DNA of 64,000 nt, from NCBI GenBank assembly GCA_000004985.1, contig GG738845.1; one strand, 5' to 3'. The position numbers and the translations under genes are program-made. Below are positions 1,519-59,900 of this stretch, one piece after another. This stretch comes from Naegleria gruberi (taxonomy: Eukaryota). The notes below the pieces were generated by a model. The model was not told the DNA's origin and searched no databases. It worked only from the letters and a program-made list of their open reading frames with translations. Position 1 is the stretch's first letter, and each line of letters opens with the position of its first letter.

Positions 1519-1530
1519 TTTGGCGCCAAA
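1519..1530. promoter_or_regulatory. palindromic E2F-like element TTTGGCGCCAAA, about 35 bp upstream of the BUB1-like ATG
   Basis: Exact 12-bp palindrome. Matches the E2F/DP consensus TTTSSCGC on both strands. The same motif recurs upstream of other genes in this window. Confidence 0.4.
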
Positions 1531-1564
1531 AAAGTTGTTAAAATGAAAATTTAAAATAAAAAAA

Positions 1565-4099
1565 ATGAGTTCTCAACTGCACTTGAAACGTCAACAAAAA
1601 CAAATTCAAGATGCAATCGATAAATACTACTCTGGAATATCTAATGACAATGCTATGGATATAAAAAAGGATACACAATTATTATCTGGTCTTGTTGGAT
1701 ATCTTTCCGGATTTCAAGAGAGTGATTTGGCCTTTGAAACAAGAGGTGATGTCATTGAGAGATTTTTCGAAAAGTATTATAACAGTTTTATGAATGGTGG
1801 TAATTATCCACCTGAATTATATTCCGATAAAACAATTTGGGATTTGTGGCTTTTATATGCAGAGGCTCATACCAATGATCCTATTCCACACATTCAAACT
1901 CTACTTGAATTTGCTCCTAAATATCCAAAGTTATTTGAGGTCTGGGCCACTTGGTCGAGAAGAACAGGACGTATTGATGATGAATTAACAGCATATGAGG
2001 AGGCTGAAACGAGAGGTGTTGTATCCGAATTGTTATCGAGCATGAAACAAGACAGATCCGAATATTTCCAACCTCCACCATCACAACAACAAACAATTCC
2101 TGAACCTAAGATTAAAACCACCACCACCGTAACTAATACTGTAATCAAACAACCTGTTGCACATCAATCTGTGGAAACATTGGTTAACAATCCAAGACCA
2201 CCTTCACCAACCCCACAAAATTATTTGATTGGATATGACAAGAATCTAATCTTTACTCCAGGTGCAGAGTTTACTTTTGAGGAATTGAGAGCAATGCACT
2301 ATTTAAATACCACTGATTTAATGATTAATCACAAACAAACAATACCTAGTTCATCATCAATTTCACACAACCAATCTTTAATTGAACAACCTAAGCATCA
2401 TGATTCCTCTATTCTTATGAATAAGAATTTTGAAAAACCATCAAGCAAACCTCAACAAAAAGACGACGACTTTGAATTTGATTTTTCAAGTGATATTACC
2501 ACAGTACATGCAAGAAAATCAATGGCTGCAACTCCTACTTCTTACGCTCAACATACTATTGCCAGCTTTTTTGAGGGAACCATTGATACTGAAATTGAAA
2601 ACAATTACTTTGAACAACGAAAGTTCCGTAAAGTGCAAGAACAAGAGAAAAAGAGAAAACTTGATGAAATTTCACAATCAACAAATAATAATTTTGCCAT
2701 ACATGAAGATACAACAGCTGAAATTAAGAAATCTAGGCTGACAGCTCAACCATCCAGTAGTACCTTTAAAATACCATCTCAGACATCTTCTGGCTTTCAA
2801 AATACAAGTCTTCAACAAGAACGTTCATTCTCTCAAAGAAATAGATCCCTAAGTGCATTCCATCAGTTTAATGATACAGGAGATGAATCAGGTCTCTATT
2901 TTGGAGATGAATCTAACATTTCAAAAACTTTCATTGTTGATAGACAGCAAGAAAGTGCGATATCATTGGAAGGAATATCAGCCCTTATTTCAAAATACAC
3001 AAATAATGGAGTAATCAATCCGTACATGGAAGATATACGAAAAGTGTATACTAATATTGTTAACATAACTAATTGCTTTAAAGACAGTCGTATTACTGAC
3101 TGTAAAGGAGTTGAATCTATAGATTTAAAAACTATTCTGCTGGAGCTAAGTAAAAAGAAGAAAGGTATCGACTATAATACTCAAACATTAAGCTTGAAGT
3201 TGAGTACAAAGACATACCTTGCCGAAGAAGCACTATCTGAACATGTGATCAAAATACAGGATGTAAGAAGTAACAATGGAATTAATACCAAATCATTTGC
3301 CTTGAAATTTAAGCCACCAAATGATTTCTATGAGTACTATGTGATCGATCAGCTGTATAGAAGAATACCAGAGAAGGAAAATCATAGATTCCCAAATATT
3401 CAAAGAGTTTATGTTATGGATAATGATATTCTATTGATGGAAAACCTTGTAAATAACATTACTCTCACACAGGCAATATCACAAGCAAAAATTGAGGAAA
3501 CAATTGCTTTGTACTATACTTTAGAACTTCTCAATATTTTGCAAACTCTGCATAATAAGGCAAACATTACACACAATAATATTTCTCCATCTAATTTATT
3601 GCTTTTAAATGAAGATACTGATCTATCTGATTGGAGTATAGATGGAAAGGGTTGGAGTAATAAGGGTCTACTGCTCACCAACTTTTCCAGGTCTATTGAT
3701 TTAGAACTATTTCCAAACCGTGTTGTTTTCCAAAGTGAACCCAAAACATTACCAGAAGTTTTCAAATCATCAATACAATATCCAAACAAGTGGAAATATG
3801 CATCAGATACTTGGAGTGTTTGTAACATCATCCACCAAATGCTTTTTAAGAAGGACATGGAGGTAACAACGAACGCTCAAGACAAGTATCTAATTAAGGA
3901 ATCCATAAGGAGATTCTGGAAATTTAGAGATGTTTGGCAAACCATTTTCGATACTTTACTAAATCTTGACCAGACAAAGAGTCCAGATTATTACCAATTA
4001 ATAGAAATGTGTCAACAGGCGTTAGGAACAAATGGAGACACAGTTAAAGCTCTTTTCTTGAGATTCATTGTCTCACTTTCTACTCAATTAAAACACTAA
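1565..4099 (+). CDS. BUB1/MAD3 (BubR1)-like spindle-checkpoint protein with a degenerate C-terminal kinase domain
   Basis: The N-terminus carries the Mad3/BUB1 homology TPR-like region (IWDLWLLYAEAHTNDPIP...LFEVWATWSRRTGRIDDELTAYEEAETRG). The C-terminal kinase-like fold has HRD replaced by THNNISPSN and no canonical DFG (LTNFSRSIDL). KEN at EKENHRF. E2F-like site 35 bp upstream. Confidence 0.6.
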   Translation: MSSQLHLKRQQKQIQDAIDKYYSGISNDNAMDIKKDTQLLSGLVGYLSGFQESDLAFETRGDVIERFFEKYYNSFMNGGNYPPELYSDKTIWDLWLLYAEAHTNDPIPHIQTLLEFAPKYPKLFEVWATWSRRTGRIDDELTAYEEAETRGVVSELLSSMKQDRSEYFQPPPSQQQTIPEPKIKTTTTVTNTVIKQPVAHQSVETLVNNPRPPSPTPQNYLIGYDKNLIFTPGAEFTFEELRAMHYLNTTDLMINHKQTIPSSSSISHNQSLIEQPKHHDSSILMNKNFEKPSSKPQQKDDDFEFDFSSDITTVHARKSMAATPTSYAQHTIASFFEGTIDTEIENNYFEQRKFRKVQEQEKKRKLDEISQSTNNNFAIHEDTTAEIKKSRLTAQPSSSTFKIPSQTSSGFQNTSLQQERSFSQRNRSLSAFHQFNDTGDESGLYFGDESNISKTFIVDRQQESAISLEGISALISKYTNNGVINPYMEDIRKVYTNIVNITNCFKDSRITDCKGVESIDLKTILLELSKKKKGIDYNTQTLSLKLSTKTYLAEEALSEHVIKIQDVRSNNGINTKSFALKFKPPNDFYEYYVIDQLYRRIPEKENHRFPNIQRVYVMDNDILLMENLVNNITLTQAISQAKIEETIALYYTLELLNILQTLHNKANITHNNISPSNLLLLNEDTDLSDWSIDGKGWSNKGLLLTNFSRSIDLELFPNRVVFQSEPKTLPEVFKSSIQYPNKWKYASDTWSVCNIIHQMLFKKDMEVTTNAQDKYLIKESIRRFWKFRDVWQTIFDTLLNLDQTKSPDYYQLIEMCQQALGTNGDTVKALFLRFIVSLSTQLKH

Positions 4100-4254
4100 T
4101 GTACAAATTAACTTAATTTATTAAAATATAAAGTTATCTAAACTTTTTTACCTTCCTTTAGCTGTTGTTAGTATTTAATTTGTGCAGATTATTAACTGAA
4201 AAGTTTGCCAATCTGATATTCTAAACACGGTTGATTTTCACCCACTTTTCTAGC

Positions 4255-5499
4255 TCAATTGAATATTTCCCAAATACCTCTTAAAGTCTTGTGATGAACA
4301 GCATAGGGTATTTCTAATCCTCCTCTCAATAATTTGAGTACATCAATTCCCATCATCATACCCACCATTCCTGAAATTTCTCCCAAAAGACCTTCAATGC
4401 TAGAGGTTAACACTTCTGTAATTCTGTTCTCATTGAGAGAGGAGTAAGCAAACGAAATGACAACTACATCTTTTTCAACCTCAGTCAATTTGACGATAGA
4501 GAGTTTTGATTCCCACCGAACTGAAACAAGAGACGGATCTTCAATTGTTGGCTTCAATCGAGTAGTGACATATTTTGTAAGGACGAAATAATTATCAACC
4601 TTGGAGATTGCAAAATTTGTTTCTGCAAACACTGGTGGGACTGTACCAGGTTCGTGGAAAGAAACTTGCAACCCGAATCTAGCATCTCGTTCCACTGGAG
4701 CTAGTGGTACTCTAAAGAATAAACTAATGGTGCCTCCATAACCAGTTGCATTGGCTGCCAATAGGTTCTGAGTATCATTATTAAATACTACAATTTCCAA
4801 AATGAAAATAATGGTTAGCTTTTCATTGATTCAACCAAACCTACCGTAACAAGTAAAATATTGGCCATTTTGTTCAATCTCTGTTATGGTGTGAGGAAGT
4901 TCAAACTGCTCAATAGTTCCATACTCTTGATTGACTGTTGTTGAATACATTAGTGTAAGATTACAATAATCACAATCCAAAGCAGCATTCCAATTACAAA
5001 CCGTAATAGCAGGATAGTAGAGAGGTAAAGACTCCACATACGCCAATGAGGTTGTTGGATTACCCAAAGAAGTGACATAATTACTAATGGAATTACTGAT
5101 ATACCAAGCTACAAACACAATGACCATAATCCATGCCACAAATGTAATGGCTTCTCCTATTGTAAAATTGAATCTTAATCTTCCTTTTTTTGCCTTTACA
5201 ACCACCAGATCTTCATCCTTTTCCATCTCTACTGGTTTCTTATCATTCTGTAAAGGTATGTGAATAGGAGAAGCATTCTCTTTAAATTCACCACTCGAAT
5301 CAGCTAATTGCAATCCAGAAACTATTGAAATAGAGAGTGGTATTTGTGTTTTCGTCTCATATTCCGATAAGCTCTGTTGCTTAATCAATGGTGACTCACT
5401 ATTTACACTACTAGCTGTTGAAAATTCCCTACTATTTTGTCTTCCGTTTATTGTTGATGATGAGAGAGTGGAGAGATTCCCCCTACTTTGTTCATTCAT
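4255..5499 (-). CDS. DEG/ENaC (degenerin / epithelial Na+ channel)-like two-TM channel subunit with a short extracellular domain; 2 exons, about 57-nt intron near 4788..4844
   Basis: ORFs 4831..5499 and 4255..4800 join in frame through GTAGGT...TTGTAG, giving ...FTCY-V-FNNDTQ. TM1 is ITFVAWIMVIVFVAWYI, followed by the family hallmark YYPAITVCNWN (compare FPAVTLCN). There is a Cys-rich ectodomain. The pre-TM2/TM2 segment LLGEISGMVGMMMGIDVLKLL aligns to LLSDIGGQLGLWIGASVL. Confidence 0.5.
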
Positions 5500-5545
5500 T
5501 TTTTTCTGTTTAAAAATGGCTATGATTCAAAAAATTCGTAAAACT

Positions 5546-5557
5546 TTTGGCGGAACA
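5546..5557. promoter_or_regulatory. E2F-like half-site TTTTGGCGGAAC, about 50 bp upstream of the minus-strand gene starting at 5499
   Basis: TTTGGCGG core in the 5' flank. Confidence 0.25.
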
Positions 5558-5702
5558 ACTTTTTGGAAGTTCATCTCTGCAACTCTTAATGTTCCAATGA
5601 TGGATTTTGAATCATTGTGATGTTGAGGATCTTTATTGTAATAACAATGAGATCTAGTGAAAATTTAAACCTAATACAGTTGATTGAGATAATCTTACTA
5701 AT

Positions 5703-6545
5703 TTATACAAGTTTTGAAATGTTTTTGTGTAAATTGTCTTCCGAGAAGGATGAGATGAGAGAACAGTTGAATTCATCATAATTAATAACTCTATTTGTTT
5801 GGCCCATTAACATGAGCAAGTCGCCATTCCTTATAACACTCTCCTTAATGATGGTTTTTCCATCATAGTCATACTTAAGATTTGAATCATTACACAGTAC
5901 TTTCATATGATTGACTCGAGCAAAATCTTGAAGTGAATCAAGGAGAGGACTTAACTCTCTCGAATGTAGATAAAGAGTTCGTTCTCTTTGCAAGATGGTC
6001 AGTAATTCGTCCTTTTGGAGTGCTTTCAGTTCTCCACCATTGAGTAGACGATCCGATAGATCAATTTGTATCAGTTCTCGAGTGGAATTATCTCTCAAAT
6101 CTCTTTGGAAAATGAAATCCAATGGCTTTTTGAAAAGTAAATATTCCACCAATACTTGATTGGAAAACATGGATTCCTTCTCAACACGATAATGAAGAGC
6201 AACAATGTCTCTATCACTCCTACTACTTGTTGGTTGCTTCATTTCTTTCAAATTGGGAGCACAGAATTGTGGCTTTTCCAGTATGATATCATTATCTAAA
6301 CTTGATGTCTTGATGAATCCATATATCTTGGTCTTTCTTCCATCGAGTAAAAGCTCATCCCGTGGCAGCGTTTTATATTCATCCTTTATTTGAGTGAGAA
6401 GTTGATCTACATATCGTGATCGGAAGAGTGAAAAATTTCTTGTTGAGTTATGACGACCATGAAATATTATGGATGACGATGATGATCCATGTAAGATGTT
6501 GTATTTAATAATTAAATTGTTGCTTCCAGTTGTTAGTCTTTTCAT
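5703..6545 (-). CDS. hypothetical protein (280 aa)
   Basis: Long ATG ORF, Ser-rich N-terminus, no recognisable domain. Confidence 0.4.
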   Translation of the reverse strand: MKRLTTGSNNLIIKYNILHGSSSSSIIFHGRHNSTRNFSLFRSRYVDQLLTQIKDEYKTLPRDELLLDGRKTKIYGFIKTSSLDNDIILEKPQFCAPNLKEMKQPTSSRSDRDIVALHYRVEKESMFSNQVLVEYLLFKKPLDFIFQRDLRDNSTRELIQIDLSDRLLNGGELKALQKDELLTILQRERTLYLHSRELSPLLDSLQDFARVNHMKVLCNDSNLKYDYDGKTIIKESVIRNGDLLMLMGQTNRVINYDEFNCSLISSFSEDNLHKNISKLV

Positions 6546-6601
6546 TTTTTTGAATTTGATTTATTTCATTCTAAATATTTTTTAAAACTCAACGATTTGT
6601 A

Positions 6602-6612
6602 TTGGCGCCAAA
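6602..6612. promoter_or_regulatory. E2F-like palindrome TTGGCGCCAAA in the divergent intergenic region
   Basis: Lies about 56 bp upstream of the minus-strand ATG at 6545 and about 155 bp upstream of the F-box gene ATG. Confidence 0.4.
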
Positions 6613-7911: not shown

Positions 7912-8047
7912 AACTTGGTTTGTTATTAAATAAACGTTTCAGAGATTTTCATTTCCCTTTTCTTCCATGTCACATTTTACTTCTTTCCCGCGTTAAAAAT
8001 CATCTCTCCTTTCTTTATAATAACATGCTTAGAGGTCATCAATAGAT

Positions 8048-8138
8048 GGTGAGTTGGTCGAGTGGTCTAAGACGACACGTTAAGGTATGATTAATACCGT
8101 GTTCCGCAAGGGCGTGGGTTCAAATCCCACACTCATCA
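8048..8138 (+). tRNA. tRNA-Leu (anticodon AAG), type II, with an 11-nt intron 3' of position 37
   Basis: Acceptor stem GGTGAGT/ACTCATC with a G2:U wobble, then discriminator A. D-arm GTCG..CGAC. Anticodon stem ACACG/CGTGT, loop TTAAGG[tatgattaata]C. Long variable arm. T-arm GTGGG TTCAAAT CCCAC. Internal A and B boxes present. Confidence 0.8.
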
Positions 8139-8607
8139 AATTTTGTGACCATCAATTGTGAGAAACTTTAAATACTGATCGATAACACTCTCAGATATCT
8201 CTAAAGTGGTATCGATAGTCATTTCAAATTTATTTATCCATTAAATGATTATAAATTAATTTTATTATTAATTATCAAATTATTTATTGATAATTTAAAT
8301 GGATTAAAATCATTAATTGAATTAAATATTTCACATTTTGATTTTAACATCTTAAATTCTAATAGTATATTAAATAATTCTTGTGCTTTAACTAGTATAC
8401 AAAAACAACACATTATCCCTAGCATTATCCACCCGATTATAAATTATATTAAGATAATATAAAACCAAATAAATCATTTACAAAAGCACATTATATGTAT
8501 TCATTATCTATTGCAATGATTCAATATATTAATATTTTCATCCAATTAGTTTGTAAAAAATCCAAGTTACTAAAAGAGTTAATTGTAAACAAAGTGGATA
8601 GAAAAAA

Positions 8608-10152: not shown

Positions 10153-10602
10153 ATCACAACAATTAAGGTATTAATTTATTGGAATTTTCAAATCATATCA
10201 GAAACGAAGTATCGAAATAATTTTAAAATTTTAAAATTCGAAATTATTTTTCGAATCAGTAAAGGTTTATTCACCAGTGTGTGAATCTTTTTATTCTGAT
10301 GTGATTGATATCTACCACCTCTTGACAAGTCGTGGGTTCTTGTTGAAGCATACAAACTATTGGATCCATACCATTGGAGAGGGAAATTGCGCCAATTACT
10401 TTTGTAACGATTCTAAAAAAAATAACTCTTTAACTTGCCATAGTATTTTTTGAAGAAAAAATTCATAGCAAAAGTTTTGCGAGTATTTTTATCTATCACC
10501 ACAACCATCATCGGCACAGCCAATTTGAAAACTTTACAACAACTAAAGTATAATCCTTAAAGGATCTAACACTCGTATAATAGTCTACTACTACTAAATA
10601 CA

Positions 10603-13600
10603 ATGTCTGATAGCGAGGAAGAAGTTTTGAAAAACGAATCATCCTCTGAGGCAGCATCAGAAGAGGAAGAAGTTCAAAATCAAGACGATGTCATGGAAGA
10701 ATCAGAAGAAGAGGTTATTACCACTCGTAAAACTAGGGCATCACGAAATGTACGTTAGTAATATTCAAATAATTTAAATTAATATTTCATCGTGATGATG
10801 GTTTCGCTTATTCACAAAATTCCATAATTAAATAGAACTATAAGGAGCCAAGTTCTGAAAGTGAGGAAGAAGAAGTAATACGAGCACCTGTTCGTTCACG
10901 AAGAGGCAGTGCAAGAAAGGTATGTATTGTTGATTATGGGTTTATAACATTGGATCTTTGACCTCTTGTCAACACAACATTAGAATTATAATGAAGACGA
11001 AGCTTACAAAGCATTGGATGATGATGATATGGACGATTCTAACGAAGTAGTTGTCAATAACGACGATGACGAAGAAGCAGAAGTAGAAGCACCAAAAAGA
11101 CAACGTAAAATCAGAAGAAATGTTGATCGGGGCTCAAGAACAAAACAATCAAGCACAATTGGTGCAGGAGACTATGAAATCCCAAAGAGAGACCTCAGAA
11201 CAAGATCCAAGAAGATTGACTACTCTGAGGAAACACAAACCGTTGAAGAACAAGAAGATGAAGTTGTTCCAGAAGAACCTCAAGAAGAGGAGGAACCTTC
11301 TGAAGAGGAAGAAGAAGTTAAACCAAAACGTACAGTCAGAAGAAGAGCAACAACAACAACAAAACCTAAAGCAAGAACTACACGTGGTGGACGTCGTGGT
11401 GCAAAATCCAAAAAGGTTGATTCGGATGATGATGATGTTGTTGTTATGGATGATGATTCTGATGAAGAAGAGAGCTCTTCATCCGAAGAGGAAGGTGAAA
11501 CAACAGAAGAACTCGGTGCTGATGAAGGACCTACCGTTTTTATGGATCAAGATAAAGACGATGTAATAGAATTAATTTTAGCTTGTCGAGTAAAGAAAGA
11601 AGAAGAAGAAATACAAGATGACGAAGAAGAAGGTTCCGAAGAAAAGAAAACTAATAGTGGCGAGGAAACAATAGAATATTTGTGTAAATATAAGAACAAA
11701 TCTTACTTGCACTGCGAGTGGATACCTAGGTACGAGCTGGATGATGATATTCAAACCAGAAACAAAATCAATAGATTCAACAAGCAATATGATGTCAAGT
11801 ATTTTGAAGGATTGGAAGAATATTTCAATCCTGAATTTACAGAAGTAGAGCGTATCATTGATCGTGGTGTTTGGGATGACTCTGAAGTTTATTGTGTAAA
11901 ATGGAAAGGTCTTACATATAGTGAATCAACTTGGGAATTTGAAAATAAGATTGAAGACAAGGAAAAGATTGAGCAATACAAGAGGATTAATAAATTGCCA
12001 ACACCAGAAGATAGAAGAATACCTGCAAGACCAGCTCCTCACAAATTCAAAAAGTTAGAAGAATCACCATCATTTAGAGATGGTAATCAATTGAGAGAAT
12101 ACCAATTAGAAGGTTTGAATTGGTTGGTATTTTGTTGGTATCAGAGAAGAAATTCAATTCTTGCCGACGAAATGGGTCTCGGTAAAACTGTTCAAACAGT
12201 TGCAACACTTGAATATTTGAGAGCTTTTGAACATATTAGAGGTCCATTCATAGTTATTGCACCTCTTTCCACTGTTGAACACTGGAAGAGAGAGTTTGAA
12301 AATTGGACAGATATGAATGTTCTTGTATTCCATGGTAATACTCAATCAAGAGAGGTAATGAAGAATCATGAATTCTTCTTCAAACATCCAAAGACTGGTA
12401 ACTTAATTTATCATCAAAAGACATACAAGTTTAATGTACTCATTACAACTTATGAAATTGTCATGGCTGAATCATCTTACCTTTCAAAGATACCTTGGCA
12501 ATATTTGGTTGTTGATGAAGGTCATAGATTGAAAAATCACAACTCAAAATTGGCACAAATTCTTAAGAATTTTAACGCTGTACACAAACTTTTGCTGACT
12601 GGTACTCCTATTCAAAACAATCTAACAGAATTGTTCTCATTGCTACAATTCTTAGATCCTGAGACTTTTTATGATCTTGATGTTTTCTCAGAGGAATATG
12701 GAAATTTGGGTGAGTCTGGTTCTGAGAAATTGGAAGGACTACATAAGTTAATTTCTCCATACATTCTTAGAAGATTGAAGGAAGATGTAGAAAAGAGTAT
12801 TCCTCCAAAGGAAGAAATTGTCGTTGAAGTTGTCCCAACCTCAATTCAAAAAGCATACGAACAGGCTATTTTCAAGAGAAATAGAGAATTTTTAATGAAG
12901 GGTGTCTCCAAATCACAAAATGTTCCAAAGTTAAACAATGTTCTTATGGAATTGAGAAAAGTTTGTAACCATCCATTCTTGATTAGTGGTGCTGAAGAAA
13001 ACATTACCAGAGGTATGAGTGACGTGGAAGTTAATGAGGCTCTTATTAAATCAAGTAGTAAGATGATTCTTGTAGACAAGCTCTTGAGAAAATTGAGAGA
13101 AGGTGGCCATAAGGTTCTTATTTTCAGTCAAATGGTTCTCGTATTGAACATTCTTGAAGATTACATGAGGTATAGAAACTTTACCTATGTAAGACTCGAT
13201 GGTACCATTAAGGGATCAATCAGACAACAAGCTATTGATAGATTTAATGATCCTAACATTGATACATTTGTATTTTTAGTTTCCACCAAAGCAGGAGGCG
13301 TAGGTATTAACTTGACTTCTGCTGACACTGTCATTATTTATGACAGTGATTGGAATCCTCAAAATGACTTGCAAGCCCAAGCTAGATGTCACAGAATTGG
13401 TCAAACCAAGGAAGTCAAGATTTATCGTCTTCTTACCAAGAATACAAAGGAAAAGGAAATCTTTGAAAGGGCTTCAATGAAGTTAGGTTTAGATAGAGCT
13501 GTTTTGTCATCAAATAATGAATTTGTCCAATCCACTTCCAAGTCTAGTACGCAAAACAAACCAGCACTTGAAAAAGAAGAAATTGAACTTTTACTAAGAC

Positions 13601-16470: not shown

Positions 16471-16482
16471 TTTTGGCGGTAA
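16471..16482. promoter_or_regulatory. E2F-like half-site TTTTTGGCGGTAAC, about 35 bp upstream of the LRR gene ATG
   Basis: TTTGGCGG core, same context as the other instances. Confidence 0.25.
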
Positions 16483-26054: not shown

Positions 26055-27626
26055 ATGCAAATCTTTTTTGATAACTACGAGCAGTTGGTAGAATTGTTTT
26101 CCCGCCATTTTAAAAAGTTAAATATAAAAAAAATGCCTCAACTTCAATTAAATGTGTTGTTCAGCAATGGAAAGGCAATTTGCTTTTTCCCAACCACATC
26201 ACTACAAACAAGAGAAGAGTTTGAATTGTTCTTGGAAAGAGAGTATGAAAAATTCTATCCTACCGATAGTGTTGCTATAAAAAATGTACAATATCTTTAT
26301 GTAGATAAGAACAATACTCCGATCAAGTTTGAATTGCCAACAAATTGGGATGATATCATTTCAAAGTCTCCAGCTAGGTCTAATATTGTAGAAATAATAT
26401 TTGGCAAAAATCCAATGATTTTTGTGGAATTGGACAATCAACCAAAGCAAAACATTCAATACGAAATTGTTTCACCAATACCAGCATCATCTAGAAAAAA
26501 GCAAGTAGAACGTTCTACTATCAGCAATGTAGCAACTTCACTTGAATTCTCTACAAGTAGTGCAACAAGTAATGATGATGAAAAAGTTGTAATATTTGAA
26601 GAGGATGACGATTCAATTTTTGATAAGTTTATTGAAACTAAAGAATTGGAAAAGAAACAAACTATTTCCCCAGAAATTCCACAATCATCAGCAGTTGTCG
26701 ATAAAAAAGAGAATGAAACACCAGCCACCACCACTACAATTACATCAAACCAAAATTCTCAACCAAGTCAAGATTCTCCAGAAATTGATTTTGATGAAGA
26801 TATTATCTTTTCAGACAATGAGGAACAACATGTGGAAAAACAACTCTTCCCTGAGGAATCTGCACAAAAGAGTCAAGAATCTGACTCTATGGTTATTGAC
26901 GACCTATCTCCTCTTATGGATGACATATTGAGCCAATCAAATGAAGAACCTGTAAAAATGACTGATGAGCTTAATGAAGCACTCTGTACACAAGCTGTAG
27001 ATACACTCCTCACTCGTGATGAATCATCTCAAAAAGAAGAGGTTACCAAGAAGGTTGACCAACCAGAACAATCAAAGCAAAGTCAACCTCTATCAACACC
27101 TCAAAAATCATCATCTCAACCAAAATCTTCACAAGAGAAGAAGGTGGCACCAGTTTTTACTCCAAAATCCTCACAAGAGAGGAAACAGGAACAAAAAGCT
27201 ACTCCAAAATCCTCAACACAAGAGAAGAAAGTAATTACAACACCAAAATCTTCACAAGAAAAGGTAACAACTCCAAAAGCCTCTCAAGAACAAAAAGCCT
27301 CACAAGAGAAGAAACAAATTACAACCCCAAAAGCATCTTCACAAGAAAAGGCAATAACACCAAAATCCTCACAAGAGAAGAAACCAGCAACAAATGAAAA
27401 TAACTCAACCAACAAGCCAGTCAAACAATTAACACCAAAAACTCCTATCTCAATATTATCAAAGGTGAAGAATTACAAAACACCTAACCCTTCACAAAAT
27501 CCTAGAGAGCAAGTTGCAGAAAAATCAAAGAGCACAACCAAAAAGAGGAAGAGAGATCAACTTTCTTCTATCATTGCTAAAAAGGCCATCGACTCATTGT
27601 CTTCCAGTAAGAAGAAAAATAAATAG
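26055..27626 (+). CDS. hypothetical nuclear(?) protein with a conserved N-terminal domain, an acidic middle and tandem TPKSSQEKK repeats
   Basis: Repeats of (T)PKSSQEKK(x) occur 8 or more times. C-terminal basic stretch KKRKRDQL. No family recognised. Confidence 0.5.
   Translation: MQIFFDNYEQLVELFSRHFKKLNIKKMPQLQLNVLFSNGKAICFFPTTSLQTREEFELFLEREYEKFYPTDSVAIKNVQYLYVDKNNTPIKFELPTNWDDIISKSPARSNIVEIIFGKNPMIFVELDNQPKQNIQYEIVSPIPASSRKKQVERSTISNVATSLEFSTSSATSNDDEKVVIFEEDDDSIFDKFIETKELEKKQTISPEIPQSSAVVDKKENETPATTTTITSNQNSQPSQDSPEIDFDEDIIFSDNEEQHVEKQLFPEESAQKSQESDSMVIDDLSPLMDDILSQSNEEPVKMTDELNEALCTQAVDTLLTRDESSQKEEVTKKVDQPEQSKQSQPLSTPQKSSSQPKSSQEKKVAPVFTPKSSQERKQEQKATPKSSTQEKKVITTPKSSQEKVTTPKASQEQKASQEKKQITTPKASSQEKAITPKSSQEKKPATNENNSTNKPVKQLTPKTPISILSKVKNYKTPNPSQNPREQVAEKSKSTTKKRKRDQLSSIIAKKAIDSLSSSKKKNK
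27100..27400 (+). repeat. in-frame tandem coding repeat (about 27-30 nt unit encoding TPKSSQEKK variants)
   Basis: The nucleotide unit ccaaaatcctcacaagagaagaaa is visibly repeated. Confidence 0.5.
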
Positions 27627-29349: not shown

Positions 29350-29384
29350 TTTTTTTTAATAATAAATATTATTGTGTGATGTAG

Positions 29385-29399
29385 ATTTGGCGCCAAATT
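29385..29399. promoter_or_regulatory. E2F-like palindrome ATTTGGCGCCAAATT, about 36 bp upstream of the RBBP5 ATG
   Basis: Near-perfect 15-bp palindrome containing the TTTGGCGC core on both strands. Confidence 0.4.
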
Positions 29400-35247: not shown

Positions 35248-35256
35248 TTTTGGCGG
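35248..35256. promoter_or_regulatory. E2F-like half-site TTTTGGCGG, about 27 bp upstream of the SMC4 ATG
   Basis: TTTGGCGG core immediately 5' of a canonical E2F-target gene. Confidence 0.3.
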
Positions 35257-35329
35257 TAAAGATTGCCACCAAACTTTCTTGTGTGATAAGTGCATCAAGC
35301 TTAATTAGAATTATATACATTTATTGTAT

Positions 35330-42363: not shown

Positions 42364-43551
42364 TTATCTCTTTACAGGTCTATTTGTAGATGGTGTAGAT
42401 CTTGTTCTGTTATTTGTTGGTTTGGTATCAAGTTTGGTTGATTGTTGAGTTGTATCCAATGGTTGTGGATTCTTTGCCTCCTTTGCTTTCAAAACCTTTT
42501 CTTGGATTCCTTCATAATTTGTTAAAAACACCAAACGATAAGCTCTCTTCCAAAGACGTTGATATCTACTGTGTACCTTGAGTCTCTCAATTTTTTCCTT
42601 CTCATTCTTTCTTTTATCTCTTTCCTCGTTTCTCTTTCTCTTTTCTTCCTCCATTACTGCAATAGCATTCTCCAAGAATACTACTCTCTTTTGGTCTCTA
42701 TTGTAATCTTGAACAAGTTGGTTGTATTTTTGAGTGTGTTCACTCATGAAATTGTCATATTTTGTAACAAAATCAAAAACTTGTTGTTCAGAGGTCAATC
42801 TGTCAAGTTTCATGTCACCTTCATCCTTGTGGTGATCCATCTTTAGCTCTGCAATCATTAATTCACATTGCTTGATTTGATCCTTAAGCATTTCCTCAAA
42901 TTTCAAGAATTTGCTATGTGCAACATCCTCTTGTGTTTTCATTGATCCACTAAATTCCTCTCTTTGGTTATTTGTACTCATTTTGAGAGCTACTAATTCT
43001 TCCTCAAGTTTCTTTAATGTTTCTTCTCTGGCAGACACTTCCTTTTCTCTGGTACTTCTCACTGAGGCAAGTTCTCTTTGAAGAGCTTTAAGGTCAGCAT
43101 TTGACTTCTTTTCCCTTGCAGCCTTTTCATTCTTTTGGTCATTCATTACTTGCTCTTCTTCCTTGGTTGTATGTAATTTATCTGCATAAATATTAACCAT
43201 CTCCTTCATGATATATACAAATCGTTCCAATCCTTCATCAGGTTTTAATGGATTTACTTGATCCACATTAAAATTGTACTGATTTAATAATTTACAAAGC
43301 TTCATATAGGTTTTCTTTACAGAAGACGAATCCGGATTTTGTACATATTCCTTAATTTTGGCATCTAGAGCCTGTTCTAGTTCATACAGCTCATAAACTG
43401 ACGAAAGAGCAGCCTCATTAATTAAGAGAGGAAGCTCACCCGAAAATAACTGATGATGTTGTGGCAAGAATTGAAGGTAACGCGTTTGAGTCAAGTGCTC
43501 ATTCAAAACCTTGATAATTCTCTCTCTTTCATCGGTTAGTTTTTGATTCAT
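42364..43551 (-). CDS. coiled-coil protein, function unknown; the start is probably the internal Met (MNQKLTDERER...)
   Basis: Predominantly coiled-coil with a Lys/Arg/Glu-rich C-terminal half. The ORF track extends to 43626. The GCGGCAAA/TTGCCGCC element would then sit inside the coding region, but is about 40 bp upstream of the internal ATG. Confidence 0.45.
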   Translation of the reverse strand: MNQKLTDERERIIKVLNEHLTQTRYLQFLPQHHQLFSGELPLLINEAALSSVYELYELEQALDAKIKEYVQNPDSSSVKKTYMKLCKLLNQYNFNVDQVNPLKPDEGLERFVYIMKEMVNIYADKLHTTKEEEQVMNDQKNEKAAREKKSNADLKALQRELASVRSTREKEVSAREETLKKLEEELVALKMSTNNQREEFSGSMKTQEDVAHSKFLKFEEMLKDQIKQCELMIAELKMDHHKDEGDMKLDRLTSEQQVFDFVTKYDNFMSEHTQKYNQLVQDYNRDQKRVVFLENAIAVMEEEKRKRNEERDKRKNEKEKIERLKVHSRYQRLWKRAYRLVFLTNYEGIQEKVLKAKEAKNPQPLDTTQQSTKLDTKPTNNRTRSTPSTNRPVKR

Positions 43552-43587: not shown

Positions 43588-43600
43588 AAATGGCGGCAAA
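43588..43600. promoter_or_regulatory. E2F-like half-site (AAAATGGCGGCAAAT) about 40 bp upstream of the probable start of the coiled-coil gene
   Basis: The position relative to the ATG matches the other instances. Confidence 0.25.
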
Positions 43601-45797: not shown

Positions 45798-48700
45798 ATG
45801 AGTCAACAACAAGATGCTCCACAAACTTCATCTCTTCCGAACACAACAACAACAGAGGCTGGAGCATCAACAACAACATCGGAACAACAAATCAACTCAA
45901 TAACATCAACACCAAATATATCATTTGAAAGTAATTTATTTGCTAATCTTCCGAATCATGATCCCACATTGAAACGTACATGTTGTTCTTTCAATGATAC
46001 TACAATTGCATTCGGTACGGAACAGGGGCATATTTACTTTCATGATAGATATACACTAGAATTAAAATTAACAATTACACATCAAGAGTTGGGTCAGAAG
46101 AGAAATTTTACTTTACCAATAACAAGAGTTTCTTTAACACCTAACTTGATCACCAATGATAAAAGGAGAGCTTTTATTGGAGCTGTAGATTCAGCATTTA
46201 TTGTATATATATTTGAAATTGAATTGACAGTCCAACAAATTGGAAATGCTAATGTTTGTTTTCCTAAAGTGGCCAGATTGCTAAACTCTCATTCACAACA
46301 CAAATTCGAAGTCACTTGTATTGCATGGGCTAATGATTTTCTCAAACTTTTTACTGGTGACACTTCAGGATTTGTTTTCGAGTTTAAAAATCAGAAAAAA
46401 TCACTCCTTTCTATTGGAAATTCTACACAAATTTTGAAAGAGGATGGTGCAGGAATTGTACAGCTATCTGTTTCTGGTGATCATTTACTCGTCTCTTCAA
46501 CAAAGCGTTCCATAGATGTTAATCTTTCAGCACAGCAGTATAAGGGTATTGGAACAAAACCAAGAGATGGTGTTTTTGGCGCATGCTTCCAATATGCTCT
46601 CAAAAAGAAAGAAGAAAACTCAGTTTCCACTCAAGATCAGTACACCATTTACGCATTTTCAGCCAGACCTGGAAGAAGAATTTGGTGTTCAGATATCACT
46701 ACTTGTAAGGTATTGTCAACCCTCAAATTTCCATCTGTGTCACAAGTCAAAGATCTCAAATTTACTCATCTTCTCAGTGTAGGTCCATATCTTGCCTCAT
46801 ACAATGAAGAAACAGTTACTATTTTGGATATTGTCAAATTGAAAATTTTGGATGTGAAATATGGAATAGGAACAATCAAACATGCATCTAGCTTTGGATT
46901 TTCCATGTTTATTGTACATGTTGATGAAAATTCCAATCATATTGTCAGTAGAATAGACTTACAACTTCCAGAAAATGAGAAACAATTCTTTATCAACCAA
47001 ATCCTACCAAAAGTTAGTAGACCAATTACAACCAATCCACAACAACCTGTGCAACCTCCACAACAGCCTCAACAAACTTCACAACCAGTCCAACAACCAG
47101 CACAGAAAAAGGACGAAAATCCACTTCAGCTCATTACTGGTTTGTTAAAAAGAAATGATACCCCTCCAGTGCCTCTTGTTAAAACTCCAAGTAATCCAAT
47201 TTTAATCAACTCTCAAAAAGAAACAGCCTCTTCTAGTGGTAATAGTACGCCAACAACCCCTGCCTCCATTTCTACCTCTTCTATACCTAAAGTTATTGCT
47301 ACAAGTAACAACACTCCAAAAGAAGAAAAGTTATTAGATTTTGAGAATGTAAAGATTGTTTCCACACCACCACCAAAATCTTCTTCCGCATTCTCTTTTT
47401 CATTACCTTCTGTTCAGCTCAAAGACAAATTTTCTGATTTGACAAGTGAAATGATGAAAAAAGCTGCAGCTGTTCTACCTAAACAAGATAAGGAACAACC
47501 AACAGCCAAACCACAAGAAGATATTAAGCCAACTGTAGAAGAGCCAAAACAACCCCAAAAAGATGAAAGTTGGTCTGCCCCAATGGTAGTCCAACCAAAG
47601 AAGATTAAAAAGAAGAAAAAGAAGCCTGAGCGACTCATTAGTTTTGATGGAAGTACCGCTGAACCAACACTCTTAATTGAAGAGAAGAAACCAAAAAAGA
47701 CCAGCTCTAAAAGAAGAACAAAATCTAAGGACTTTGATCAACTCTCACAAGTTTCAGATGATACCAGTAAAACTGGCTCCCTTGGATCAGATAATGAGGA
47801 TAGTGATAACACAGAAGATACTATTACAAGTTCTTCCAGCTTAGTTGATCCTTCACCAATTACTGAAAATTTACCAGCCATGGTTACTGAAGGTGACAAA
47901 TCACCTGGTACACCTTTAGAGAAGGAAGAACCTGTTCCTGAGCAAAAAACTGAACTTACAGAAAGTACTGAAGTTACTAACGTTGCACCAATTATTGAGG
48001 AAATCAAATCTAACGAAGAAATTCCTTATGATGACAACAGTAAGGATACTTCAGTAGCAATTCTTGAAATAATTGATACCGTAACAACAATAGAAGAAGA
48101 AACAATAGATCATATTCAACCTTCTGTTACTGACTCAATTCAAGTAATTGAGCCTGCGGAAAATGAACAAGAAATTCCAGTTGAGTCTGTAGTAAGTGGA
48201 GATGAATCAACAACAAAACAAGTCTCACCAGAAACTACAGAAGAAATTGAAACTATTTCTGAACAAGAAAAACAAGATTTGGAAAAGAAACAAGAGGAGG
48301 AGAGAAGAGAATTGCAACGTATCGAAGATGAAAACAAAAAAGCTGAACAAGAGAGAATTAGAATTGAGGAAGAAAAACTTAAAGAACAAGAAAGGATTGC
48401 AGAGGAAAAAAGAAAAGAAGAAGAACGACTTGCGGAAGAGAGAAGAAAAGAGCAAGAACGTACAGCAGAAGAAAAGAGAAAAAAGGAAGAGGAAGAAGAA
48501 AAGAGAATTGCAGAAGAGAGAAGAAAGAAGGAACTTGAAAGGCTCGAAGAAGAGAGGAAGAGAAAAGAGCAAGAGGAAAAACAAAGGCTCGAAGAGGAAA
48601 AAAGAAAGGAACAAGAAAGGCTTGAGGAAGAAAGAAAGAGAAAGGAACAGGAAAGAATTGAAGAAGAAAAAAGAAAGAGAGAAGAATTAATCAAAAAGAA

Positions 48701-50669: not shown

Positions 50670-52898
50670 ATGTCTGCATCCAAGACAGCTATTGTTTCAA
50701 CCTTAGTGGTTGTTATGATGGTTTTGATCCAAAGTGCCTTGTCTCTTAAGAATTCTGCCCACAAGAGAAGTGAAGATGACTGGATTCCGGGTAGGTTTTA
50801 TTGTTGTTCTTGTTGCGGATATTTATTCTGTAATTTTTTATATTAAGGCTACAATTACATGTTGAGCGGTTTCGACGTTAGAAGTATGCAAAGTTCTTCT
50901 AACAGCATGGATCCTGCTAAGAATGTTGTAAATTTAATTTTCAGACCAACCACTGAGTTTGGAACTTTGTACCGTATGCCAGTTTCTAAGGAAAAGTTTA
51001 AGGTACCAGATGCCATTGAAGTTTATGATTATGTTACTACAAACGTTACTAAAACATCAGACACTATGGAATCAATGTCTGAATCATTGAAGTATGAAGC
51101 TTCAAGCTATTCATTCTCATTCTCTGTCAACGTTGGTGTTGTCGGTGTTAGTGCTGGTTTGAACACATCTTTTGGCCACATTCACCAAACCTTTGCTCAA
51201 AGCAATCTCTTTATGGCCACTGGTTCTATTAGAGGTACTATTTATCAAGCTACCCTTGAACCACCAACATTCTTGGAACAAAATCCATACTTTAAGAGAG
51301 CTTTGGCTGCCATTCCAAACACTCCAACTGCTGCCGATTTGGACAAGATTAATACCTTGATCAAATACTTTGGTGTTTCATATGTTTCAAAGGGTGTTTT
51401 CGGTGGTAAATTCAATTTGATCACTAAGGTTTCTGATAAGATCCTCAAGTCCTATGACAAGTCTTGGTGTATTACTCAATTGTCCTTGACCTTCAGTTAT
51501 GGCGCTTATTCATTTGGTATGTCTGGATTCAAAAATAAGACTGATATCCATGTCAATAATGATTTTGCCAATAACGCCAAGACTGACATGTTCTTCGTTG
51601 GTGGTGACTTTACTTTGCAAAGTAACGAAACTCTTAAGGAATGGTACCAATCAATTCCAGGCCAACCATCCCTTATCGGAGGTGAATTCAATTTGATTTC
51701 TGATTTGGTTGATAACAATGCTGTAAAGAAGAAGAATTTGGAAGCCATCTTGAAGAACTATGTTGCCACTGGTAGAGTTGAAATTCCTGCTTCCATCAAG
51801 AAGATTGCTGTTCCTCATCCACTCAAGAGAAATGTCCTCCTTGATCTTTCTCGTATTCCAGGTGCTGCCTTGATTGGTTCTGGTTTCGATACCTTTACGT
51901 AAGTTGTTTTTTGTTTAAATCTCAACTAATTAACGTTAAATAGTCTCACTCCAAGATTGAGTCTTTTCAAGCAAGCTCCAGATTCCAAGGCTACTACTTG
52001 GACTAATCCAATCTATAAGGATATTCAATTCGCTGTTCCAGGAAACGTCCTCGTCAGAAATAATGCTGAATCATACTATGCTAACAGCACTTTTGTTGCT
52101 TTGACCAAGCAAGAATACGAATATCAATATAGAGAACACTCCTCTAAATCTGGCATGTTCGGTTTGAGTCACCATTCTAGAGATGTTTTCATTTATAACT
52201 ATCGTTATGAATTTGAAGATTCTTACCAATTGAATACTTTCAGAAGAATTTCTTGGTATGATTTGTCATTGGATCCTCTCTGTTTGTTCGATCTTAATAA
52301 CCGTCTTGAACCATTTGCTAAGAGAATGATTGATTCTCTCCCAGCTACTGGTGGTGATCAAAAAGAAGTCAGAGATAAGTACAAGAAGTTTATCGATTAC
52401 TATGGTACTGCTGTTGTCACCAAGACAACTATGGGTGGTGGTATCTTCTTCAAGGTTAACTTTAAGAAGGATTTGACCAAGACTTTGAGCATTCATGAAA
52501 TCCACGAACAATCTGGATGGTCATTCCTCCACATTTTCGGTGAAAAGTCAACTCACGATTTCTATCTTAAGAAGTTGTCTCAACAGTTCATTCAACACTC
52601 GTCTGTTGAATTCAACACTCAAGGTGGTTCTTGGACTCCAGAAATTAACGGTGTTAGACCAACTGGTCCAAATGCTCTTAACATTATTGATTCTCCAGAA
52701 GGTTACATGAGTTGGGAAGATTATGCTAACTCTATCAAGTATGACCCATACCCAGTCAACTATGAATTGCAACCAATTCACACTATCTTTGCTGATAAGG
52801 CCAAGCAAGGTATTATGAAGTCTGTTCTTGATGAATATCTCCAAGAAAAGTACAATCAAAAGCCAGCTTCATTCTCCAGAGCCGGTAAGGAATACTAA
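50670..52898 (+). CDS. secreted MACPF (membrane-attack-complex/perforin) domain protein; 3 exons (about 50670..50790, 50848..51898, 51944..52898)
   Basis: Exon 1 encodes the signal peptide MSASKTAIVSTLVVVMMVLIQSALSL (its frame is too short for the ORF track). G|GTAGGT..ATTAAG|GC joins it to MLSGFDVRS.... The MACPF signature is YFGVSYVSKGVFGGKF (Y-G-T-H-x7-GG type). AC|GTAAGT..AAATAG|T joins the second track ORF in frame (...GFDTF-T-LTPRLSLFKQAP...). Confidence 0.7.
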
Positions 52899-52923
52899 AT
52901 AAATATAATTGTTGTTTATTCAA

Positions 52924-55070: not shown

Positions 55071-55096
55071 AATATTTAATAATTAAAAAGAATGAG

Positions 55097-55169
55097 TGGA
55101 GATGCGGGGTATCGATCCCCGTACCTCTTCCATGCTAAAGAAGCGCTCTACCATGTGAGCTACATCCCC
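55097..55169 (-). tRNA. tRNA-Ala (anticodon AGC)
   Basis: The reverse complement folds as GGGGATG TA GCTC ACATGGTA GAGC G CTTCT TTAGCAT GGAAG AGGTA CGGGG ATCGATA CCCCG CATCTCC A. It carries the Ala-identity G3:U70 pair. A T-run terminator lies downstream (cttttt). Confidence 0.85.
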
Positions 55170-55822: not shown

Positions 55823-55986
55823 GCTCTCCTCTTTTTCACTTTTCCAATTTCCCTCTCTAATTTTCCCACCAATTCTCCTTTTAATAAAAACTCAAAAAAT
55901 TCAATCATAATGATATGTATTGAATTCTCCTATTAAATATGATTTGACATCAAAATGATCAAATCTATCAAATTAGAAAACAAAAA

Positions 55987-56694: not shown

Positions 56695-56834
56695 ATTTCA
56701 ATTATTAATTAAAAAAATAAGGATGATAACAAGCAATATTACTACCCTGTATTATAATTTCATTGTTTTAATTTTAAATATTTTAATCAAATTTAGATCA
56801 CAAAAATAATTCCAAATTTATTAACACAAAAAAA

Positions 56835-58559: not shown

Positions 58560-58643
58560 TTTGTGAAATTGTGAAATAGTTGGTGTAATAAAGAGCTCAA
58601 TATGATATTTAAATATTCGCAGTACTTCATAAAGTTTGTTGAG

Positions 58644-58660
58644 AATTTGGCGCCAATTTT
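58644..58660. promoter_or_regulatory. E2F-like palindrome AATTTGGCGCCAATTTT, about 38 bp upstream of the RRP8 ATG
   Basis: TTGGCGCCAA core with flanking T/A runs, as at 1519 and 29385. Confidence 0.4.
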
Positions 58661-58697
58661 TTAAACCAACAAATTATTTCAAATTCAAACAAAAATA

Positions 58698-59735
58698 ATG
58701 CCACCACACCAAAAGATATTCAACAATAACAGCAAGAAGAGAAAACAAGCTGAGAAGAGAAAGGAAGAAACCGAAATATTTGAAGAGGAAGATGATGAAA
58801 TTGTCATCAAGAAAGTAGAAGATATTTCTATTGCCTCTCCGGATGCAAAGAAAAGAAAGGTTGATAGCAAACCAACAAAACAACAAACTCCAATCAAACA
58901 ACAACAACAGGCACCAACAACAACAAGTAAGAAACAAAACAAAACATCATCATCAACACAACAGGGTTCTTCTTCCTCTCAATTAACATCCCTCCAACAA
59001 GAATTCCAAGAGAAATTAAAATCATCTAAATTCCGTTTCTTGAATGAAAAACTTTACACCACAACAGGTCATCAAGCAAAATTGCTCTTTGAAAAGGATC
59101 CTTCTCTGTTCACTCTTTATCATGATGGATATAGACAATCAATGGAAAAGTGGCCATTCCAACCTGTTAAAAACATGATTAAATATTTAAATGGAAAACC
59201 ATTGAACTGGGTTGTTGCTGATATGGGTTGTGGAGAAGCTGAAATTGCCAAGAATGCAAAGCAAAAGACAATTCACTCTTTTGATTTAGTTGCTGCAAAT
59301 GATAAAGTTGTAGCTTGTGATATGAGAAAGACACCTCTCTCAGAGGAATGTGTTGATTGTGTCATCTTTTGTCTTTCATTGATGGGCACCAATTTTTATG
59401 ATTATTTGAGAGAATCATCGAGGATTTGTAAACAAGGAGGTTGTTTGAGAATTGCAGAATTGGAATCAAGATTTTTAACAGAGGAAACAAAGTCAAATAC
59501 TATGGAAGATGAAGTTCCATCAAAATCACCAAAGAAGAAGATTAACCCATTCGTAAAATTCGTTTCATGTGTTGAACATTTTGGATTTAAATTACAAAAA
59601 CAATCCACACCAAATGGATACTTTGTAATTTTTGAATTTGATAAGGTTAAGCCTTACTCTGAGGTAAAATCCCTCAAAGATCCAAACTTTACCAATCTTG
59701 ATGTCTTGAAGCCATGTATCTATAAGAGAAGATAA
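58698..59735 (+). CDS. RRP8: ribosomal RNA-processing protein 8 (Rossmann-fold rRNA methyltransferase RRP8/NML)
   Basis: [17 protein letters not shown]...[68 protein letters not shown] ... LKPCIYKRR is collinear with human RRP8 (...[39 protein letters not shown]...CLYKRR). Lys-rich N-terminal NoLS-like region. Confidence 0.85.
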   Translation: [345 protein letters not shown]

Positions 59736-59890
59736 TATGTGTGAAATAAATTACATTTTTCTAAAATGAGATACTTTTTGCAAGATGTGAATGGCATGGT
59801 ATGGTACATAATTGGAATTTACAGTTTCCAGCCAAGTTGTTAAAACTTGCAAGTTAGTGTTAGAATTCATTGATAAATGTAACTGAATTA

Positions 59891-59900
59891 TTGGCGCCAA
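59891..59900. promoter_or_regulatory. E2F-like palindrome TTGGCGCCAA immediately upstream of the zinc-finger gene
   Basis: It lies 17 bp upstream of the first in-frame start and about 56 bp upstream of the second Met. Confidence 0.4.

Follow-up and report, generated by a model that had tools for sequence, protein, structure and literature searches.

Does the short GC-rich palindrome that recurs upstream of start codons at this locus mark an E2F/DP cell-cycle regulon, or is it a GC-rich core-promoter element in an otherwise AT-rich genome? Both readings had been offered in a preliminary description of this DNA, a stretch of 64,000 nucleotides referred to here as the window. To our knowledge, almost nothing is known about the control of transcription in Naegleria and its relatives, a group that includes the brain-eating N. 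fowleri, and nothing specific was found in the literature on E2F or any promoter motif in these organisms. The description had listed five palindromes, all of which are present, at coordinates differing by only 0 to 3 bp, as well as half-sites at 5546, 16471, 35248, 43588 and 10385, which were recovered at 5546, 16472, 35249, 43593 and 10386 (Table 1). It had missed the sites at 26098 (TTTCCCGCC), 7984 (TTTCCCGCG) and 59906 (TTACCGCCA).

Table 1. E2F-type and related elements in the 64-kb window and the genes adjoining them (".", palindromic element)
Position	Strand	Element	Adjoining gene	Location relative to the gene
1519..1530	.	full palindrome TTTGGCGCCAAA	BUB1 kinase (1565-4099, +)	centre 40 bp 5' of ATG
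5546..5553	-	half-site TTTGGCGG (CCGCCAAA in gene sense)	ENaC/ASC-like channel (4255-5499, -)	50 bp 5' of ATG 5499
6601..6612	.	palindrome ATTGGCGCCAAA	no assigned function (5703-6545, -)	divergent intergenic region, 61 bp 5' of ATG 6545
7984..7992	+	TTTCCCGCG	intron-containing tRNA (8047-8139)	63 bp 5' of the tRNA gene; no protein-coding start adjoining
10386..10394	+	TTGCGCCAA	CHD1, intron-containing	215 bp 5' of ATG 10604
16472..16482	+	half-site TTTGGCGGTAA (TTACCGCCA variant; contains TTTGGCGG)	LRR protein	40 bp 5' of ATG 16516
26098..26106	+	TTTCCCGCC	gene running to 27626, +	31 bp 5' of internal ATG 26133 (context aaaaaaaATG); within longest ORF (start 26055)
29386..29397	.	full palindrome TTTGGCGCCAAA	RBBP5/Swd1 (COMPASS), one intron (27834-29350, -)	41 bp 5' of ATG 29350
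35249..35259	-	half-site TTTGGCGGTAA (TTACCGCCAAAA in gene sense; contains TTTGGCGG)	SMC4 (31273-35221, -)	31 bp 5' of ATG 35221
43593..43600	-	GCGGCAAA (TTTGCCGC in gene sense)	coiled-coil protein (42364-43551, -)	45 bp 5' of internal ATG 43551; within longest ORF, which extends to 43626
46575..46582	+	TTTGGCGC	HPS5/Vps8-like	in coding region; sole within-gene consensus match
58646..58656	.	palindrome TTTGGCGCCAA	RRP8 (rRNA methyltransferase)	46 bp 5' of ATG 58698
59890..59914	+	palindrome ATTGGCGCCAAA plus second site TTACCGCCA (59906) 5 bp downstream	intron-containing gene with cysteine-rich RING-like motif	60 and 46 bp 5' of ATG 59956

The palindromic core TTGGCGCCAA occurs in five exact copies (1520, 6602, 29387, 58647 and 59891) compared to 0.62 expected, the expectation allowing one mismatch, and none of 100 shuffled sequences reached five. 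These copies account for each of the five GGCGCC hexamers in the window. The wider consensus TTTSSCGS is matched 14 times in the 64 kb (2.47 expected; 14 not reached in any of 100 shuffles), corresponding to 12 distinct sites. Ten of them are located 30 to 62 bp upstream of a plausible ATG, measured from the site centre to the ATG as a stand-in for the start of transcription, with two of the ten assignments (26098 and 43593) resting on start codons picked after the motif was seen. The internal ATGs in question (26133 and 43551) have the usual A-rich context. Apart from the five TTGGCGCCAA palindromes, the E2F consensus TTT[C/G][C/G]CG[C/G] is represented by TTTGGCGG, TTTCCCGC and TTTGCCGC variants, with the CG core and T/A flanks. 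Among the words most enriched in the non-coding sequence of the window, TTGGCG, GCGCCA and GGCGCCAA stand beside generic AT-rich words, and TTGGCG/GCGCCA-type words are the sole GC-containing family among the strongest, GGTTTA-type words aside. The latter (GGTTTA/AGGTTTA) were considered as a second signal and dropped, their positions being mixed and some overlapping intron 5' ends.

The sequences flanking the motif copies are mutually unrelated. Non-palindromic sites are found in either orientation relative to the gene, as expected of a factor that binds DNA rather than of an RNA signal; a transcribed RNA hairpin was rejected on this ground and because the palindrome leaves no loop. Several matches deserve separate mention. 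The tight upstream spacing that had been described for all sites holds for the ten promoter sites, with 31 to 62 bp from site centre to ATG, not for the one at 10386, which is off-consensus, lies beyond the usual spacing and probably does not belong to the motif set. Membership of the site at 7984 is uncertain. The GGCGC-type site that had been placed inside a coding sequence at 46576 is indeed coding, in an HPS5/Vps8-like gene and not in CHD1, and is probably a chance match. The gene facing the palindrome at 6602 from the opposite side possibly carries an F-box; its first in-frame ATG (6769) is about 160 bp downstream of the element.

About 10 of the 31 gene starts in the window bear a site. 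Of the gene identities proposed earlier, BUB1 (the best-matching solved structures being BUB1 kinase domains, E 2e-16), SMC4, RBBP5 and RRP8 were verified, and the link to CHD1 is unsupported. In this small sample of about 31 genes, the motif-bearing set further comprises the ENaC-like channel, the LRR protein, the coiled-coil protein and several unassigned genes, so that roughly half of it is without an evident cell-cycle link. A permissive Pfam scan of the motif-bearing genes without assigned function gave nothing usable. The window also encodes Mic60 and an RWP-RK protein.

The best matches of the window RRP8 and SMC4 are found in Naegleria, Willaertia and Acrasis. A Cryptosporidium origin of the window, considered in view of the TGGCGCCA motif known there, was rejected on this ground and because of the Mic60 and RWP-RK proteins; the DNA belongs to a heterolobosean of the Naegleria lineage. 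The SMC4 ORF of the window is identical to an entry on a metagenome contig of 6.5 kb, and an exact look-up of the RRP8 product gave no match. Upstream of RRP8, (T)TTGGCGCCA is present 46 to 57 bp from the ATG in the window, N. fowleri, Willaertia magna and a metagenomic relative, that is, in all four species checked of the Naegleria/Willaertia group, the RRP8 proteins of which are just 51 to 76% identical. For Acrasis kona RRP8, the 300 bp preceding the annotated start contain no site. Alignment of the upstream regions with MAFFT did not bring the motifs into register, since the flanks are unalignable, and a shared-word test was used instead. In that test, the regions preceding RRP8 in the window, N. 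fowleri and W. magna share TTTGGCGCCA and no longer word, and only 1 of 2000 shuffles reached 10 nt. Upstream of SMC4, an E2F-type site was detected in six of six heteroloboseans, the window and five relatives including A. kona. It reads TTACCGCCAAAA in the window, TACCCGCCAAT in an N. fowleri-like sequence, ATTCCCGC in N. lovaniensis, TTTCCCGC plus CTCCCGCCAA in W. magna, AGGCGCCAAT in A. kona and TTTCCCGC in the metagenomic relative. Such switching among E2F variants is expected of an E2F consensus rather than of a fixed palindrome. The element is retained in promoters of orthologous genes with flanks too diverged to align.

These data bear on an alternative according to which the elements are a chance or compositional artefact, or the ends of a repeated or mobile element. 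The sample is small, and short GC-rich words are conspicuous by eye in AT-rich DNA; against this, no shuffle reached the observed counts, the copies have unrelated flanks and the sites are kept at orthologues in species between which the intergenic DNA can no longer be aligned. Between them, the shuffles and the conservation across species already refute this explanation, and we give it practically no weight.

Four genomes contributed to a pool of 154 kb, made up of the window and loci of N. fowleri, N. lovaniensis and W. magna. Of the 19 distinct sites in this pool, 16 are located at most 80 bp upstream of an ATG, a zone that accounts for 3.9% of the pooled DNA (binomial P about 2e-20), and only one lies in genic sequence. 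The related loci were reached via two motif-bearing genes, RRP8 and SMC4, whose own contribution to the pooled count is therefore inflated; the neighbouring genes are unbiased. Roughly 0 to 20% of the genes in the related loci have a site.

Such positional fixity could also be that of a general promoter element independent of gene function, read by a broadly acting E2F/DP or by an unrelated lineage-specific factor, without any cell-cycle regulon. The share of window gene starts with a site at the narrow distance of 30 to 62 bp, the targets without a cell-cycle link and the precedent of the same core in Cryptosporidium (PMC3734150; bioRxiv 10.1101/2025.01.17.633476) are in line with this explanation. 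However, a TATA- or Inr-like universal core-promoter element would be expected at most promoters, and about 21 of the 31 window starts, as well as most genes of the related loci, are without a site. Its absence from most promoters argues against a universal core element, and the GC-rich core-promoter reading of the preliminary description does not hold in this universal form. Furthermore, BUB1 and SMC4, the two clearest mitotic genes of the window, both have the site, and the sequence variants span exactly the range of E2F sites, so that an unrelated factor is not needed. Altogether, we regard a general element of this kind as unlikely.

A search for E2F/DP homologues had been suggested earlier, and the genus encodes the proteins in question. 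N. gruberi has one each of E2F, DP, DEL and RB (sequences in the supplement of PMC4862756). The DNA-binding domain of its E2F closely matches that of human E2F4 in the DNA complex 1CF7 (chain A) with an E value of 7e-25; a 22-residue DNA-recognition stretch is identical in both proteins. The presence of E2F/DP is established at the genus level, from the N. gruberi sequences; among the scanned ORFs of the window, no E2F or DP domain was found.

The elements are probably promoter-proximal cis-regulatory sites bound by an E2F-family factor in this heterolobosean: an E2F/DP heterodimer and possibly, at the TTTCCCGCC variants, the two-domain DEL/E2F7-8 protein. The earlier E2F-like reading is borne out by the consensus fit in every permitted variant, the promoter-proximal position, the retention at orthologues and the E2F, DP, DEL and RB genes of the genus. 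One winged-helix domain would contact each half of the CG-centred core, which is flanked by T/A runs; TTTGGCGCCAAA would be the symmetric optimum, with TTTGGCGG and TTTCCCGC as the usual half-optimal variants. In a very compact, AT-rich promoter with only 30 to 60 bp from the site to the ATG, the bound factor might attract the transcription machinery or keep it away, with RB presumably in control, and genes such as BUB1, SMC4, RBBP5 and RRP8 would thereby be coupled to proliferation. Binding itself, activation or repression, dependence on RB and timing in the cell cycle are what we infer from the sequence. The targets count canonical proliferation genes (BUB1, SMC4 and RBBP5), and a strict cell-cycle regulon is only suggested, because unrelated genes are also among them. 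The share of one third of the window gene starts exceeds what a narrow G1/S regulon predicts.

Within the same protein family, the main reader might instead be a DEL/E2F7-8-type protein, which has two DNA-binding domains in a single chain and requires no DP partner, and would act as a repressor, making the element a silencer. In-vitro selection data indicate a preference of E2F7/8 for TTTCCCGCCAAA-type sites, a form found at 26098 and at several W. magna promoters, and N. gruberi DEL contains two RRxYD-type motifs. The second of these (TRRLNDIV) departs from the consensus, however, and the commonest form of the element has the symmetric GGCGCC core preferred by E2F/DP. We consider DEL as the main reader very improbable; it is a sub-case within the E2F family, inseparable by sequence alone from the E2F/DP explanation.

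If the elements are E2F sites, they would give promoter annotation and the design of expression constructs in this group a first concrete cis-element to work with, and would offer a means of predicting a proliferation-linked gene set. They would also supply a rule for the choice of start codons, namely an ATG in A-rich context 30 to 60 bp downstream of a site. As a further data point from Discoba, they would speak for the presence of the E2F/DP/RB module, together with its DNA site, in the last common ancestor of eukaryotes.

The type of element is well known; in Heterolobosea it is new, as far as the literature found shows. The canonical E2F/DP site of animals and plants (TTTSSCGC, palindromic TTTGGCGCCAAA) has the same 12-bp consensus with a symmetric CG core and T- and A-rich flanks. 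It is likewise promoter-proximal, its targets include mitotic and chromatin genes (BUB1, SMC4), and the genus Naegleria likewise has the reading protein, its recognition helix RRIYD...NVLEGI being identical. Differences are the lineage, here Heterolobosea (Discoba), the very tight spacing to the ATG (30 to 62 bp) in a compact, AT-rich genome, and the high share of window genes with a site. CDE/CHR and E2F-plus-CHR promoters of animal G2/M genes are similar in that BUB1 and SMC4 are likewise of the G2/M type and in that TTTGAA follows the CCGCCA core within a few bases at 59906 and 43593. This word is, however, common in AT-rich DNA and close to only three to four of the ten sites, and the resemblance serves as a lead only.

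The closest analogue is the genome-wide E2F motif of Cryptosporidium parvum, 5'-TGGCGCCA-3' (PMC3734150; bioRxiv 10.1101/2025.01.17.633476). No upstream motif of Cryptosporidium is more over-represented than this same core, which also dominates open chromatin at promoters in every expression class (PMC3734150; bioRxiv 10.1101/2025.01.17.633476). The motif there is genome-wide, while the present element is known from 64 kb and about 150 kb of related loci. Cryptosporidium belongs to Alveolata, a supergroup unrelated to Discoba, and lacks RB (PMC3734150; bioRxiv 10.1101/2025.01.17.633476), which Naegleria has. The GGCGCC-centred core is identical in both. Each time, and for the present element at the scale of the window, no GC-containing word upstream of genes is more conspicuous in the compact, AT-rich DNA of the protist, genes of many functional classes are preceded by it, and one site can be common to a bidirectional promoter. 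A bolder and rather doubtful extension is that E2F/DP of Heterolobosea is a broad, position-fixed promoter-proximal factor acting on perhaps a fifth to a third of the genes, beyond G1/S. If true, compact protist genomes in two unrelated supergroups would have one promoter architecture in common. This would argue either that E2F was a general promoter-defining factor in ancestral eukaryotes or that such use of it arises convergently as promoters shrink.

The palindromes listed in the preliminary description correspond to five exact copies of the 10-mer TTGGCGCCAA in the window, for which 0.62 matches are expected with one mismatch permitted; none of 100 shuffles reached five. All GGCGCC hexamers of the 64 kb lie inside these five copies, the G+C content of the window being 31-36%. 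The half-sites were likewise present as written, and the E2F-type sites take the forms TTTGGCGCCAAA, TTTGGCGGTAA and TTTCCCGCC. TTTSGCGC was matched 8 times (0.32 expected) and the full E2F consensus TTTSSCGS 14 times (2.47 expected). In an unbiased k-mer comparison of non-coding with coding DNA, TTGGCG, GCGCCA, GGCGCCA and GGCGCCAA were among the top enriched words, while the remaining ones were generic AT-rich words, except for a GGTTTA family. The 9-mer sub-variant TTACCGCCA (n = 3, 0.09 expected) was found in promoter position every time and may represent either a composite site or a separate, preferred flank of the half-site. At two sites, TTTGAA is located a few bases downstream of a CCGCCA core. 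In animals, G2/M promoters carry TTTGAA as their CHR word, and the order recalls the CDE/CHR arrangement, although TTTGAA is frequent in AT-rich DNA anyway.

Sites and genes in the window, with neighbouring features; sites were oriented to their gene and distances run from site centre to ATG
Feature	Coordinates	Strand	Site to ATG (bp)
TTGGCGCCAA, exact copies	1520, 6602, 29387, 58647, 59891		
TTACCGCCA upstream of LRR gene	16474-16482		
TTACCGCCA upstream of SMC4	35251-35259		
TTACCGCCA upstream of RING-like gene	59906-59914		
CCGCCA core with TTTGAA	43593-43615, 59906-59925		
BUB1 kinase	1565-4099	+	40
ENaC/ASC-like channel	4255-5499		50
Gene without assigned function	5703-6545		61
CHD1, intron-containing	10604-16431	+	
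LRR protein			40
Gene without assigned function	from 26133		31
RBBP5/Swd1	27834-29350	-	41
SMC4	31273-35221	-	31
Coiled-coil protein			45
RRP8	58698-59735	+	46
RING-like gene			60
E2F-type word TTTCCCGCG	7984		
tRNA gene with intron	8047-8139	+	
ORF-poor gap	29400-30380		
RWP-RK gene	30384-31031		
Adjacent ORFs	37658-39139, 39142-42240		
MACPF genes, two	50859-52898		
tRNA-Ala(AGC)	55096-55169	-	

Non-palindromic sites occur in both orientations relative to the gene. The context of nearly all start codons in the window is an A-run, AAAAAAAATG, which aids the choice among alternative ATGs, e.g. 26133 over 26055 and 43551 over 43626, these two downstream starts having been picked once the motif was known. 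In 154 kb, comprising the window and four annotated loci, 16 of 19 distinct TTTSSCGS sites lie no more than 80 bp upstream of an ATG, a zone covering 3.9% of the sequence (binomial P ~2e-20); the pooled loci were chosen via two motif-bearing genes (RRP8 and SMC4), and several of the extra sites adjoin unrelated neighbour genes. Only one of the 19 was genic. The coding-region match noted in the preliminary description was recovered at 46575, its host gene being HPS5/Vps8-like. Since a site is present at about 10 of the 31 gene starts of the window, the element is not a universal core element, and the earlier alternative of a GC-rich core-promoter element is not supported in a universal form.

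Searches against Pfam and solved structures supported the names BUB1 (match to BUB1 kinase domains, E 2e-16), SMC4, RBBP5, RRP8 and CHD1. The site previously assigned to CHD1 (10386) is off-consensus and located 215 bp upstream of the CHD1 ATG. The other motif-bearing genes encode an ENaC/ASC-like channel, an LRR protein, a protein with a RING-like motif and three products without assigned function. The channel gene (amiloride-sensitive sodium channel family) consists of two ORFs and has no obvious link to the cell cycle. A broad promoter element, used whatever the function of the gene, would account for this functional mixture and for the high share of motif-bearing genes in the window; it is the main rival reading, which we regard as rather unlikely.

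Members of the E2F family contact the CG core through an RRxYD motif, and the same DNA specificity is therefore expected for the Naegleria protein. The DNA-binding domain of N. gruberi E2F matches human E2F4 of the E2F4-DP2-DNA crystal structure 1CF7 (E 7e-25), including an identical stretch of 22 residues, and N. gruberi DP contains RRRVYDALNVL. The E2F and DP homologues that the preliminary description had proposed to look for are listed for N. gruberi, together with a DEL (E2F7/8 type) and an RB, each as a single protein (Medina et al. 2016 supplement, PMC4862756). The sites are probably promoter-proximal E2F/DP sites, perhaps also bound by DEL, and RB would tie the bound genes, including BUB1, SMC4, RBBP5 and RRP8, to proliferation control. 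A repressor site for DEL only, a sub-case within the E2F family that looks the same at sequence level, is considered unlikely.

For comparison, loci containing orthologues of RRP8 or SMC4 were retrieved. The best matches for RRP8 were from Naegleria fowleri (76% protein identity) and Willaertia magna (51%), followed by Acrasis kona. Upstream of RRP8, TTTTGGCGCCATT was found in N. fowleri (57 bp to the ATG), TTTTGGCGCCACT in W. magna (49 bp) and CTTGGCGCCAAAT in a metagenomic relative (57 bp). The upstream flanks of RRP8 are unalignable between the species. Within the 150 bp upstream of RRP8, no word shared by the window, N. fowleri and W. magna is longer than TTTGGCGCCA; a common word of this length arose in 1 of 2000 shuffles. 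SMC4 was most similar to the product of a 6.5-kb metagenome contig (100%), then to those of N. lovaniensis (57%) and W. magna (54%). By the matches of these two proteins, the window is a chromosome segment from a heterolobosean of the Naegleria lineage, and an origin in Cryptosporidium was rejected. The SMC4 site is retained across species, shifting among E2F variants: TTACCGCCAAAA in the window, TACCCGCCAAT in an N. fowleri-like contig, ATTCCCGC in N. lovaniensis, TTTCCCGC and CTCCCGCCAA in W. magna, TTTCCCGC in the metagenomic relative and AGGCGCCAAT in A. kona. Judged from these sequences, such turnover inside the consensus is predicted for a degenerate E2F site and would not be allowed by a factor requiring a fixed palindrome. 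Three observations exclude chance and a repeat-derived origin: the shuffle counts, flanks that are unrelated to one another, and conservation across species. The metagenome contig (ENA ERZ929261, PRJEB11402) also has the gene order of the window (RWP-RK, SMC4, CfaA-like gene); together with the identical SMC4 product, this places the source organism, or a strain very close to it, in the sampled community. Among the named genomes of the protein collection, none yielded an identical protein.

Several further features of the window were recorded. Besides the coding-region match, the only consensus site away from a protein-coding start is TTTCCCGCG, 63 bp upstream of an intron-containing tRNA gene whose anticodon was not resolved by ARAGORN. 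Just 26 bp separate the tRNA-Ala(AGC) gene from the start codon (ATG at 55070) of the protein gene downstream of it on the same strand, so that the tRNA fills the promoter region of that gene. About 1 kb without a convincing ORF, unusually long in so compact a region, separates the RBBP5 promoter palindrome from the RWP-RK gene; no Rfam match at gathering score was obtained for it, and it could hold an extended 5' UTR, exons that escaped recognition or a non-coding RNA transcribed from the same palindrome. The two MACPF (perforin-like) genes, in tandem on the same strand and apparently a local duplication, both lack an E2F-type site. Two same-strand ORFs separated by 2 bp may belong to one gene whose reading frame is broken by a short intron, a frameshift or an error in sequencing.

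The type of element and its reader protein are already textbook knowledge; for Naegleria and other heteroloboseans, a literature search of incomplete coverage found no description of this or any other promoter motif. The E2F-type site has some practical use in Naegleria, for annotating promoters and choosing start codons, and the finding is relevant to the role that E2F had ancestrally. In Cryptosporidium parvum, a motif with an identical core, TGGCGCCA, is the most over-represented upstream motif (PMC3734150) and dominates open chromatin at promoters (bioRxiv 10.1101/2025.01.17.633476), a broad promoter role of the kind that the rival reading proposes for the window.
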